Virus record (IMG/VR): IMGVR_UViG_2541047773_000006
Length of the DNA stretch: 49,096 bases
Strand: one strand, 5' to 3'
From: a virus
Lineage: Duplodnaviria; Heunggongvirae; Uroviricota; Caudoviricetes
A program made the position numbers. Below, piece by piece: positions 15,623 through 18,600 of this stretch (within the stretch, counting starts at the first letter, position 1; every line of letters starts with the position of its first letter).

Positions 15623-18600
15623 ACCCGCTCCAGCATTTGAAACAAGCCTTATTGTATTGCGGCACTGGCGTATTTTTTTATTACGTGGGAGCAGGTTGTT
15701 TTGAAAAAGCATTCTGTTCTCTGGCTATGATTTGAGGCCGGGTGTAGCCTCAGTGCTGATTTTTTACGGCAGCAGAATGGTGCATTATCGGTGGAGATTT
15801 TGTATTTCCTGGCAGGGTCGGTGATGCATCATTCTGGTGTTGTAAAAGCACCGCAGAGGCGTTCCTCAGGGCGAGGGTGGTTTAAAGAGTCGGTTTAGCG
15901 GGAAACCACAGTATCCATACGGCACGGAATACTTCGGGAGGCACCCGACGCCTCGGTTTTATAACAATTAAATAATTCATCCCTTAATTGACCAACCGCC
16001 GTATCAGGCGGTTTTTTTTATTCTTAATTCGAAAAAAGAAAACACGGACACTGATAATGTCCGTACGGCAATGCCATGTAAGTCAGTGATGAATATGGCG
16101 CAAAAAAAGCGCGGCTGTCGGATTAACGCCGCGGGACAAAGTCCGTGAAGAAGAATAAGTATCGGTCTCCTTCCGGAGACGAGTTGATATTACTAAGCTT
16201 TAAAAATGGTTTAAATCCTCAGATTAACCTTAATTTCAGATAAGGTTTATTTCATTTTCTCCGCGTCACATCCGACGCACATCACATCAGATAACACCAC
16301 ACAAAAGGCATCTGCGGGTGTCTTTGACGGGGTGTTTTTTACGGGCCGCTGGTGGCCATTTTTTGTTTCCATTACACAGCGCCCGCATCTGCGAGGTGGG
16401 GGTTATGAAATCCATGGATAAGTTAACAACGGGTGTCGCCTATGGCACCTCCGCAGGCAGTGCTGGCTACTGGTTTTTACAGTTGCTCGATAGAGTAACT
16501 CCGTCACAGTGGGCTGCAATCGGTGTGCTGGGTAGCTTGGTATTTGGCCTGCTGACGTACCTGACAAACCTTTATTTCAAGATTAAAGAAGATAAGCGCA
16601 AGGCTGCGAGAGGTGAATAATGCCTCCATCATTACGAAAAGCCGTTGCTGCTGCTATTGGTGGCGGAGCAATTGCTATAGCATCAGTGTTAATCACTGGC
16701 CCAAGTGGTAACGATGGTCTGGAAGGTGTCAGCTACATACCATACAAAGATATTGTTGGTGTATGGACTGTATGTCACGGGCATACAGGAAAAGACATCA
16801 TGCTCGGTAAAACGTATACCAAAGCAGAATGCAAAGCCCTCCTGAATAAAGACCTTGCCACGGTCGCCAGACAAATTAACCCGTACATAAAAGTTGATAT
16901 ACCGGAAACAACGCGCGGCGCTCTTTACTCGTTCGTTTACAACGTGGGCGCTGGCAATTTCAGAACATCGACGCTTCTTCGCAAAATAAACCAGGGCGAT
17001 ATCAAAGGCGCATGTGATCAGCTACGTCGCTGGACATATGCTGGCGGTAAGCAATGGAAAGGTCTCATGACTCGTCGTGAGATTGAGCGTGAAATCTGTT
17101 TGTGGGGTCAGCAATGAACAGAGTAACCGCGATTATCTCCGCTCTGGTTATCTGCATCATCGTCTGCCTGTCATGGGCTGTTAATCATTACCGTGATAAT
17201 GCCATTACCTACAAAGCGCAACGCGATAATGTGAAGGAAAAACTCAACCAGGCGACCGCAATCATTACTGACATGCAGATACGCCAGCGTGATGTTGCTG
17301 CACTCGATGCAAAATACCTGAAGGAGTTAGCTGATGCGAAAGCTGAAAATGATGCTCTGCGTGATGATGTTGCCGCTGGTCGTCGTCGGTTGCACATCAG
17401 AGCAGTCTGTCCGTCCGTGCGTGAAGCCACCATCGCCTCCAGCGTGGATAATGCAGCCTCCCCCAGACTGGCAGACACCGCTGAACGGGATTATTTCACC
17501 CTCCGGGAACGACTGGTAATGATGCAGGCCCAACTTGAAGGTGCTCAGCAATACATAACCGAACAGTGTTTAAAGTAAAATCTTAACTACAATATGATTC
17601 ATTTTGATGATTGTTTCATAAGGAACAGTGAAGTAAGATCTAAGATGAGTTAAATTTTATACAGTATAATCATAATGTTGCAGCAAGGTGGTTATAATTG
17701 AAAGAATATTTAGATATGAATACATCTCATATAAGAGTTGTTACTCATATGTGTGGGTTCCTGGTTTGGCTCTATAGTCTTTCAATGTTGCCACCAATGG
17801 TTGTAGCATTGTTTTATAAAGAAAAAAGCCTGTTCGTTTTCTTTATAACTTTTGTTATATTTTTTTGCATTGGTGGCGGAGCGTGGTATACAACTAAGAA
17901 ATCTGGTATTCAATTACGTACTCGTGATGGGTTTATTATAATTGTAATGTTTTGGATTTTGTTTTCTGTTATTAGTGCATTCCCTTTATGGATTGACTCA
18001 GAACTTAATTTAACGTTTATTGATGCTCTATTTGAAGGGGTTTCTGGAATAACAACAACAGGAGCAACTGTAATTGATGATGTTAGTTCATTACCTCGGG
18101 CATATTTGTACTATCGGTCACAGTTAAATTTTATAGGTGGTTTAGGAGTTATTGTTCTGGCGGTTGCTGTATTGCCATTATTGGGTATTGGTGGTGCAAA
18201 GCTTTATCAGTCAGAAATGCCAGGGCCATTTAAGGATGACAAACTTACTCCCCGCCTGGCCGATACGTCACGGACACTTTGGATAACTTATTCTTTATTA
18301 GGTATTGCTTGTATTGTCTGTTATAGACTTGCAGGAATGCCTTTGTTTGATGCTATTTGTCACGGGATATCCACAGTTTCGCTTGGTGGTTTCTCAACTC
18401 ATAGCGAGAGTATCGGATATTTTAATAACTATTTGGTTGAGCTGGTGGCTGGTTCTTTTTCCCTGCTATCGGCTTTCAACTTCACCCTTTGGTATATTGT
18501 TATTAGCAGGAAAACGTTAAAACCTTTAATCAGAGATATTGAACTTCGTTTCTTTCTGTTAATAGCCTTAGGGGTGATCATTGTTACCTCTTTCCAGGTC

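Follow-up and report, generated by a model that had tools for sequence, protein, structure and literature searches.

The prophage record IMGVR_UViG_2541047773_000006 (Caudoviricetes), whose 49,096 nucleotides constitute the window analyzed here, contains a slot between a tRNA-Gly gene and a holin gene (positions 15633-16404) that is likely to be a conserved noncoding module of lambdoid late regions encoding two convergent, structured small RNAs (sRNAs). The RNA on the strand presented (+) probably occupies ~15763-16021 and comprises a long hairpin, a multi-branch domain, an AU-rich linker, and an intrinsic terminator. The RNA on the opposite strand (-) probably runs from ~16180 to 16102 (~79 nt), with a possible longer form of ~149 nt ending near 16032. 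The kind of system, convergent prophage sRNAs in the cargo site of the late region, is known, and both sequences are undescribed, unannotated variants of it. Convergent Hfq-bound sRNAs were reported in the moron (cargo) site 3' of the late promoter PR' in eight Sakai prophages, including EcOnc27 facing AsxR downstream of stx2B (Tree et al. 2014, PMC4104026). In enteropathogenic Escherichia coli (EPEC), PasD1 and PasD2 lie on the late strand downstream of the antiterminator gene Q, and PasA and PasC lie antisense just upstream of the holin gene, as confirmed by northern blotting (Pearl Mizrahi 2021, PMC8550237).

An exact 26-mer from the most conserved block of the slot retrieved ~100 prophage loci from IMG/VR, of which 38 unique variants were classed as long and ~15 others, whose 3' half differs, as short. 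The RNAalifold consensus of the 38 long variants contained 70 pairs, distributed over the long hairpin, the closing stem of the domain, four enclosed hairpins, and the terminator. These pairs were standard in 98.8% of cells, compared to 41 to 54% with slid partners, and double-change cells numbered 42 versus 13.8 in shuffles, with none of 500 shuffles as high. Over the whole structure, 379 G·U cells were counted versus 6 A·C cells, and because of this excess the + strand is identified as the selected strand. Folding of 15725-16022 on the + strand gave -112 kcal/mol (z = -5.2), which was equaled by 0 of 200 shuffles.

The first element of the + RNA is a G·U-rich hairpin of 34 bp at 15763-15846, delineated by RNAalifold and pair counts. 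Its lower stem has 28 bp and its apical stem, GGAGAU/AUUUCC (15793-15809), has 6 bp; a conserved bulge, CUGGCAGG, lies on the 3' side at 15810-15817, and pairing within the hairpin was 99.3% and 100% among the 38 unique variants. When loci were seeded instead on the 3' end of tRNA-Gly, the hairpin apex motif followed in 104 of 138 (≤3 mismatches). Most of the remaining loci carried diverged apical stems (GGAAAU/AUUUCC, AGAGAU/AUGUCUCU, or GGGYU/AGCCC), and the bulge motif UGGCAGG was retained in these diverged variants while the apical stem covaried. Conservation of the apex is thus not merely a product of searching with the apex.

The multi-branch domain (15856-15954) was defined on the + strand by a match to the Rfam family STnc100, by covariation, and by a covariance model, R1, built from the slot's own family only. 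Its closing stem pairs GAGGCG (15856-15861) with CGCCTC (15949-15954) and covaries, and it encloses four hairpins, including UCGGG-AGGCA-CCCGA; covarying pairs in the domain include a CG↔UA exchange in 14 sequences and a GC↔AU exchange in 10. The domain is followed by an AU-rich, single-stranded linker at 15955-15993 (alignment columns 212-254), which varies more than any other part of the + RNA and may serve as a seed or as a binding site for Hfq. The RNA ends in a conserved helix recovered by the terminator scan, AACCGCC-GTATCA-GGCGGTT followed by U8 (15994-16021). The short variants (L014, L023, L035, L056, L100, and others) have the same long hairpin and the same terminator, with a different 3' half of ~90 nt (...GTTGAGATTAATCGCG...) and without the multi-branch domain; in short variant L245, the apical portion of the hairpin is missing as well.

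Comparison with known prophage sRNAs revealed distant homology of the + domain. At relaxed thresholds, the full-length STnc100 model (RF02076) aligned to 15829-16021 with 17.5 bits (E of 0.2 to 0.5), and an identical CGGGAGGCACCCG hairpin was present in the slot and the model, whereas the closing stem differed on both sides (GAGGCG/CGCCUC in the slot versus AUGGUG/CACCAU in STnc100). The multi-branch fold of the STnc100 type, with a closing stem, inner hairpins (compare CCGGG-AGGCA-CCCGG), and a 3' terminator, was found in the alignment of the 38 variants. In searches with R1, which used a shortened calibration, PasD2 (26.5 bits, E of 8e-4), PasD1 (23.1 bits, E of 4e-3), and EcOnc27 (22.4 bits, E of 5.5e-3) were each matched over the full length, with strand and coordinates as published. 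As a control, Sakai EcOnc27 was recognized as a canonical STnc100 with 207.7 bits. PasD and STnc100 have been described as structurally related (Zhu, Shabalina and Storz 2026, bioRxiv 10.64898/2026.05.13.724894). From these sequence and model comparisons, we conclude that 15856-16021 is a putative diverged representative of the PasD/STnc100 superfamily that here carries a fused 5' hairpin and is linked to tRNA genes.

The arrangement of the + RNA supports the same comparison, with differences. As with STnc100/EcOnc27 in the Sakai prophage Sp5, the + RNA is encoded on the late strand of a lambdoid prophage, downstream of both Q and the putative PR'; it resembles EcOnc27 in length (~170 to 200 nt), in the CGGGAGGCACCCG hairpin, and in a terminator that converges on an antisense sRNA. 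Unlike in STnc100, the closing stem, inner hairpins, and linker have sequences of their own, and the slot domain is preceded by the 34-bp hairpin and two tRNA genes, whereas EcOnc27 is preceded by stx2B. PasD1 and PasD2 of EPEC strain E2348/69 resemble the slot RNA in overall architecture, in ending at a terminator that carries a U tail, and in their place on the late strand, with Q on one side and the lysis cassette on the other; they differ in being preceded by a DUF3927 gene rather than tRNAs and in having no long hairpin. The U8 tail and an AU-rich linker are both present in the + RNA, and the seed of PasD is located at the equivalent of this variable linker, but the PasD seed sequence UGUGAG is absent from 15955-15993.

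For the - RNA, 36 unique variants of 16030-16185 were aligned and read on the - strand. The consensus contained five hairpins, whose 27 pairs were 99.3% paired, compared to 32 to 48% when slid, and 84 double-change cells were observed versus 33 in shuffles (0 of 500 as high). The - strand was favored by 55 G·U versus 3 A·C cells. Together with the pair counts, this delimits a core sRNA candidate of ~79 nt (16102-16180), which reads, from its 5' end, a hairpin, GUCUCC-GGAA-GGAGAC (16180..16165); a conserved single-stranded stretch, CGAUACUUAUUCUUCUUCAC (16164..16145); a hairpin, GGAC-UUU-GUCC (16144..16134); and a terminator, CGCGGC-12 nt-GCCGCG with U7 (16133..16102). Beyond the core lie a small hairpin, GGCA-U-UGCC (16075..16067), and a distal terminator found in the terminator scan, ACGGACA-UUAUCAG-UGUCCGU (16064..16044), with a U-run at 16041..16032. 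The distal terminator covaries (AU↔GC in 15 sequences and GC↔AU in 7, with U·G in 22), and loci L045 and L097 keep just the core unit, i.e., the first ~80 nt.

A σ70-type promoter on the - strand is placed to initiate this RNA, with a -35 element TTTAAA (16215..16210), a 17-nt spacer, and a -10 element TAATAT (16192..16187), giving a predicted start near 16180. Eight spacer sequences occur among the unique variants, yet 30 of 30 have the same two hexamers, a 17-nt spacing, and 6 nt between the promoter and the first hairpin. The two predicted RNAs converge as in the pairs described by Tree et al. (2014): the + terminator ends at 16021 and the - U-run at 16032, with Q and the tRNAs to one side of the pair and the holin gene to the other.

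The - RNA is a positional and architectural analogue of AsxR and PasA rather than a detectable homologue of either, because R2, a covariance model of the - RNA, retrieved its own family only, with no match at the PasA, PasC, or AsxR loci. The Rfam models for AsxR and AgvB (RF02703 and RF02702) likewise gave no match on either strand at E ≤ 5-10, and two words of the conserved ~42-nt 3' region of AsxR/AgvB (GTATCTCATGC and TTGCCCGAACCCA) were absent from the window. Homology of the - RNA to AsxR/AgvB or PasA/PasC was accordingly rejected on the basis of the Rfam and R2 searches. The resemblance to the anti-sRNAs AsxR, AgvB, and EcOnc03 consists of the orientation antisense to the late operon, a terminator back to back with that of an STnc100-like RNA (separated by 10 nt in the slot versus 1 nt between EcOnc27 and AsxR in Sp5), and a weak motif similarity between CAUGGCAUUGCC in one and CAUGCAAUUGCC in the other. 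These anti-sRNAs are 51 to 60 nt long, whereas the slot RNA would have ~79 or 149 nt and five hairpins, and in a further difference its promoter lies ~150 nt from the distal terminator. PasA and PasC (EcOnc51 and EcOnc52 in enterohemorrhagic E. coli [EHEC]) are also antisense, ~80 nt long, and intergenic just upstream of a holin gene, and PasA has a minor longer form that ends at a second terminator (85 and 236 nt), so that agreement with the slot RNA is confined to position, orientation, size, and tandem terminators. They differ in following a SASA esterase gene, which is absent here, and in showing no sequence or model similarity.

Several points weigh against the reading of the slot as a pair of sRNA genes. 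The STnc100 score is below the gathering score of 47, a threshold that PasD also fails to reach; the E-values obtained with R1 are modest; and BLAST of PasA, PasC, PasD1, and PasD2 against the slot returned chance words of 8 to 12 nt only. The alignments consist of close relatives (effective sequence number, ~1.3), many of them fetched by the exact 26-mer; because of this relatedness, independent covariation events are few and the significance of the shuffle tests is overstated. Finally, the + RNA is without a clear promoter or 5' end of its own within the slot, and the - promoter agrees with the consensus at 8 of 12 positions and falls below the threshold of the promoter scan.

The slot was matched in 425 of 5426 complete E. 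coli genomes, always in the chromosome, and 208 of these matches were full length at 80 to 100% identity; roughly 6 to 8% of complete E. coli genomes carry it. The slot of NZ_OZ040973.1 is identical, strain 190 (NZ_CP020520.1) has an identical + RNA, and LY180 (NC_022364.1, 1467643-1467915) shows 87.6% identity. Among phage records, the slot was found in vB_EcoS-683R6 and twice in SerU-LTIIb. Escherichia ruysiae (L207) also carries it, as the sole real match in a 17-mer scan of genome contigs in which the other matches were almost all due to chance because the query was too short. Three settings were recognized: a DUF1133-type Q with essD-type lysis genes, another Q with a MazF toxin, and a DNA methylase with a different two-holin cassette. 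Given this recurrence beside unrelated neighbors, the slot behaves as a mobile noncoding module. In SerU-LTIIb (L002; KU052038.1), a phage carrying a type IIb heat-labile toxin (LT-IIb), the tRNA-hairpin-RNA module occurs twice in tandem, at 1122-2031 with tRNA-Arg/Gly and then at 3028-3743 with tRNA-Thr/Gly, and the second copy lacks the - RNA region. A literature search by sequence string returned nothing relevant, and no specific description of the tRNA-to-holin region was found in the literature on Rac or LT-II prophages.

High overall identity among close relatives, at a position that is a known cargo site, would also be expected if the slot were a neutral leftover of a decayed cargo gene that appears conserved through recent prophage divergence. 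This explanation is highly improbable: substitutions keep pairing in 98.8 to 99.3% of cells, each RNA has a strand-specific G·U excess, the module recurs in mosaic contexts with different flanking genes, and no remnant of a protein gene was found. In addition, an alignment of nine slot copies showed near-invariant blocks separated by variable linkers, and the invariant blocks are the structured ones.

The sequence-only reading of this stretch had described the slot as free of convincing open reading frames (ORFs) and rich in hairpins, and both descriptions held. Apart from an extension of the holin gene, the longest overlapping ORFs were 41 to 42 amino acids (aa); a 100-aa ORF with a GTG start (16318-16620) is merely that in-frame upstream extension. 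None of nine slot ORFs of 30 to 42 aa was significant when scanned with Pfam (best E of 0.07 to 0.23, below the curated cutoffs), and a RefSeq chromosome with a 100% identical slot has no annotation and no coding sequence (CDS) there. Terminator-like sites numbered 8 in 14900-16700 versus 1.7 ± 1.4 in shuffles. The terminator with T8 was recovered at 15994-16021, where it had been placed, and two other proposed hairpins proved real but shifted: ACGGACA-ctgataa-TGTCCGT lies at 16044-16064, one base from 16043-16063, and GTCTCC-ttcc-GGAGAC lies at 16165-16180, ten bases from 16155-16170. Missing from that reading were the role of the 16044-16064 hairpin as an opposite-strand terminator with its U-run at 16041..16032, the further - strand terminator at 16133..16102, the 34-bp hairpin at 15763-15846, and the multi-branch domain at 15856-15954. 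Its proposal of a small structured RNA expressed from the late promoter is supported by conservation, covariation, and homology to known prophage sRNAs as far as the structured RNA is concerned, but not as a single RNA, since two are predicted, the second on the opposite strand with its own promoter; the + RNA may come from the late promoter.

It is very unlikely that the slot encodes small proteins, although a hypothetical protein (WP_001298832.1) is annotated at the homologous place in some RefSeq genomes and one phage record annotates two - strand ORFs. The candidates were a 41-aa ORF on the - strand (16247-16372), the counterpart of WP_001298832.1, for which tblastn gave 81% identity over 31 aa, and a 15-codon ORF within the long hairpin (15784-15831). 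The RefSeq record with the identical slot carries no CDS, and the scanned ORFs belong to no Pfam family. In relatives, a 5-nt indel puts the C termini of the 41-aa ORF out of frame, and variants with the other holin type have lost its start codon; the 105-aa ORF of the phage record is interrupted by stop codons in the window. In several variants, a G→A change truncates the 15-codon ORF with a premature stop, and base pairing compensates for the other changes. Both ORFs were rejected for the frame-breaking indel, the lost start, and the premature stops, and because such indels and start codon losses occur in relatives, the annotation of WP_001298832.1 is suspect, which suggests that it is spurious.

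Upstream of the tRNAs, an intrinsic terminator at 15211-15240, ~95 bp past the Q stop codon, is 85% identical to the post-Q terminator of the Sakai Stx2 (Shiga toxin 2) prophage Sp5, and further downstream Sp5 and the window share the 14-mer TGTATATTTTAAGT. An AT-rich stretch resembling an upstream promoter (UP) element is followed by two overlapping σ70 promoter candidates at 15372-15415, TTGACG-17-TGGAAT and TTGCGA-16-TATCAT; the latter provides a second -10-like element slightly downstream, an arrangement seen in PR' promoters with a σ-dependent pause. Still within 15372-15478, the leader has a long-range stem, GGUUCUGAGGGG...CCCCUGAAGAACC, directly before tRNA-Thr. Elsewhere, the same tRNA module is preceded by equally placed but different promoters (e.g., TTGAAA-16-TAATAT and TTGCAA-17-TATTAT). 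The promoter at 15372-15415 is probably PR' (or a tRNA promoter). Inside the slot, the sole candidate for a + RNA promoter, TTGAAA-19-TATGAT at 15701-15731, lacks conservation and has an unfavorable spacer, and no claim is made for it.

In a lysogen without Q, transcription from 15372-15415 would yield a leader-tRNA-tRNA-structured RNA transcript that stops at 15994-16021, from which RNase P, RNase E, or RNase III could free the tRNAs and a stable RNA of 166 to 260 nt. In the presence of Q, the polymerase would read through the slot terminators into the lysis genes. The - RNA would be made constitutively from its own σ70 promoter and would end at either of the tandem terminators (~79 and ~149 nt). 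Judging from their analogues PasD, PasA, and AsxR/AgvB, the two RNAs would most likely associate with Hfq and act on host transcripts, either as base-pairing regulators or as sRNA sponges. The - RNA, a perfect antisense of the late transcript, could pair with that transcript as well. Thus, conservation, selection at the RNA level, the strand of each structure, the geometry of promoter and terminators, and the distant homology of the + domain come from the sequence evidence, whereas expression, processing, dependence on Hfq, and targets are inferred. In lambda and Stx phages, the late promoter yields Q-independent transcripts, 6S RNA and StxS, respectively, that stop at the first terminator, and StxS acts as an sRNA. 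Unlike these, the terminated transcript proposed here would be ~600 nt long and include two tRNAs and a structured RNA.

The main alternative to the pair of regulatory sRNAs is that the slot acts purely in cis, with terminators and RNA-processing signals that shield the lysis genes from transcription independent of Q and mature the tRNA transcript and with released RNAs that have no function in trans. The logic of Q antitermination requires terminators at the slot, and from the tRNAs to the holin gene the + strand has three terminator-like hairpins (15732-15765, 15994-16021, and 16344-16365), with another right after Q; moreover, the long hairpin, imperfect and asymmetrically bulged, is reminiscent of phage RNase III sites. 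Terminators, however, leave the covarying multi-branch domain unexplained, as well as a - strand promoter with two - strand terminators, and the homologues PasD and EcOnc27 are abundant Hfq-bound sRNAs with many partners in RIL-seq (sequencing of ligated pairs of interacting RNAs). A purely cis-acting slot is therefore considered unlikely. More speculatively, the tRNA-linked 34-bp hairpin may be an undescribed functional RNA module of lambdoid phages, for instance one that binds a protein or an RNA in a sequence-specific manner or a processing switch of the RNase III type, and the - RNA may represent a new family of anti-sRNAs or sponges unrelated to AsxR/AgvB and PasA/PasC; this combined proposal is tentative and rather unlikely. 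If it is true, the hairpin could couple phage tRNA expression to the release of a regulatory RNA.

The two sRNA candidates share the slot with a genuine cargo site that is unoccupied here and holds no gene remnant. The sequence-only reading had offered a vacant or decayed moron site and proposed a comparison with cargo-bearing relatives. Vacancy is supported by position: Stx phages carry stx here, and at the homologous position relatives carry TerB and DUF3927 genes at ~16285. Decay is not, since no protein-coding moron (stx, TerB, DUF3927, or SASA esterase) was found as an ORF or remnant, and TerB and DUF3927 proteins had no credible tblastn match. In strain EC21Z-048 (L003; NZ_CP101269.1, 2665-3239), TerB-family and DUF3927 genes are inserted at the equivalent of ~16285, between the - RNA region and the pre-holin segment, and homology to the window resumes directly after the DUF3927 stop codon. 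The stretch 16291-16371 was considered as a DUF3927 gene remnant and rejected, as only the noncoding stretch after the stop codon is shared. A DUF3927 gene also directly precedes PasD in EPEC, and its presence beside the slot in EC21Z-048 and before PasD in EPEC implies that the small gene and the sRNAs travel together.

The pre-holin segment itself (16263-16404, + strand), defined by the terminator scan and alignment, contains a covarying small hairpin, GCGTC-ACATCC-GACGC (16263-16278); a third + strand terminator, GGCC-GCTGGT-GGCC with a T-run (16344-16365); and a Shine-Dalgarno region before the holin ATG at 16405. The last 80 to 110 bp of the slot also precede the holin genes of phiP27, mEp460, and cdtI phages. 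At the other end of the slot, a tRNA trailer (15633-15762, + strand) with small hairpins, e.g., TGAGGC-cgggtgta-GCCTCA (15733-15752), was delineated from the alignment and the terminator-like scan and forms the variable 5' flank of the long hairpin.

The source prophage is a Rac-like lambdoid prophage of E. coli. Rfam matches placed the RalA antitoxin sRNA at 1557-1735 and sok of a hok/sok module at 12902-13077, and trkG lies immediately 3' of Rz (17698-19173); RalA, sok, and trkG after Rz together indicate a more complete relative of the K-12 Rac prophage. The order around the slot is a Q-like antiterminator gene of family DUF1133 (14580-15116), followed on the + strand by tRNA-Thr(UGU) (15479-15554) and tRNA-Gly(UCC) (15558-15632), both predicted by ARAGORN and by Rfam tRNA matches. 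After the slot come the holin gene essD (16405-16620), the lysozyme gene rrrD, Rz, and trkG. The N terminus of the holin, encoded at 16405-16416, is MKSM, which we take to be a dual-start motif (Met1 and Met4) of the sort that gives rise to holin and antiholin forms in lambdoid class II holins.

The slot RNAs have remained unannotated because they lie below Rfam thresholds and are missed by BLAST with known sRNAs, and ORF-free gaps in late regions should not be taken as empty cargo sites. The + RNA extends the PasD/STnc100 superfamily to a tRNA-linked form, and the - RNA adds a candidate new family of antisense sRNAs. Prophage sRNAs at the equivalent position rewire host regulation in EHEC and EPEC: AgvB counteracts GcvB, AsxR counteracts FnrS, and the Pas sRNAs interact with virulence gene transcripts. 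The slot suggests that the same two-RNA architecture is present in Rac-like and other prophages, including those of the LT-II lineage.

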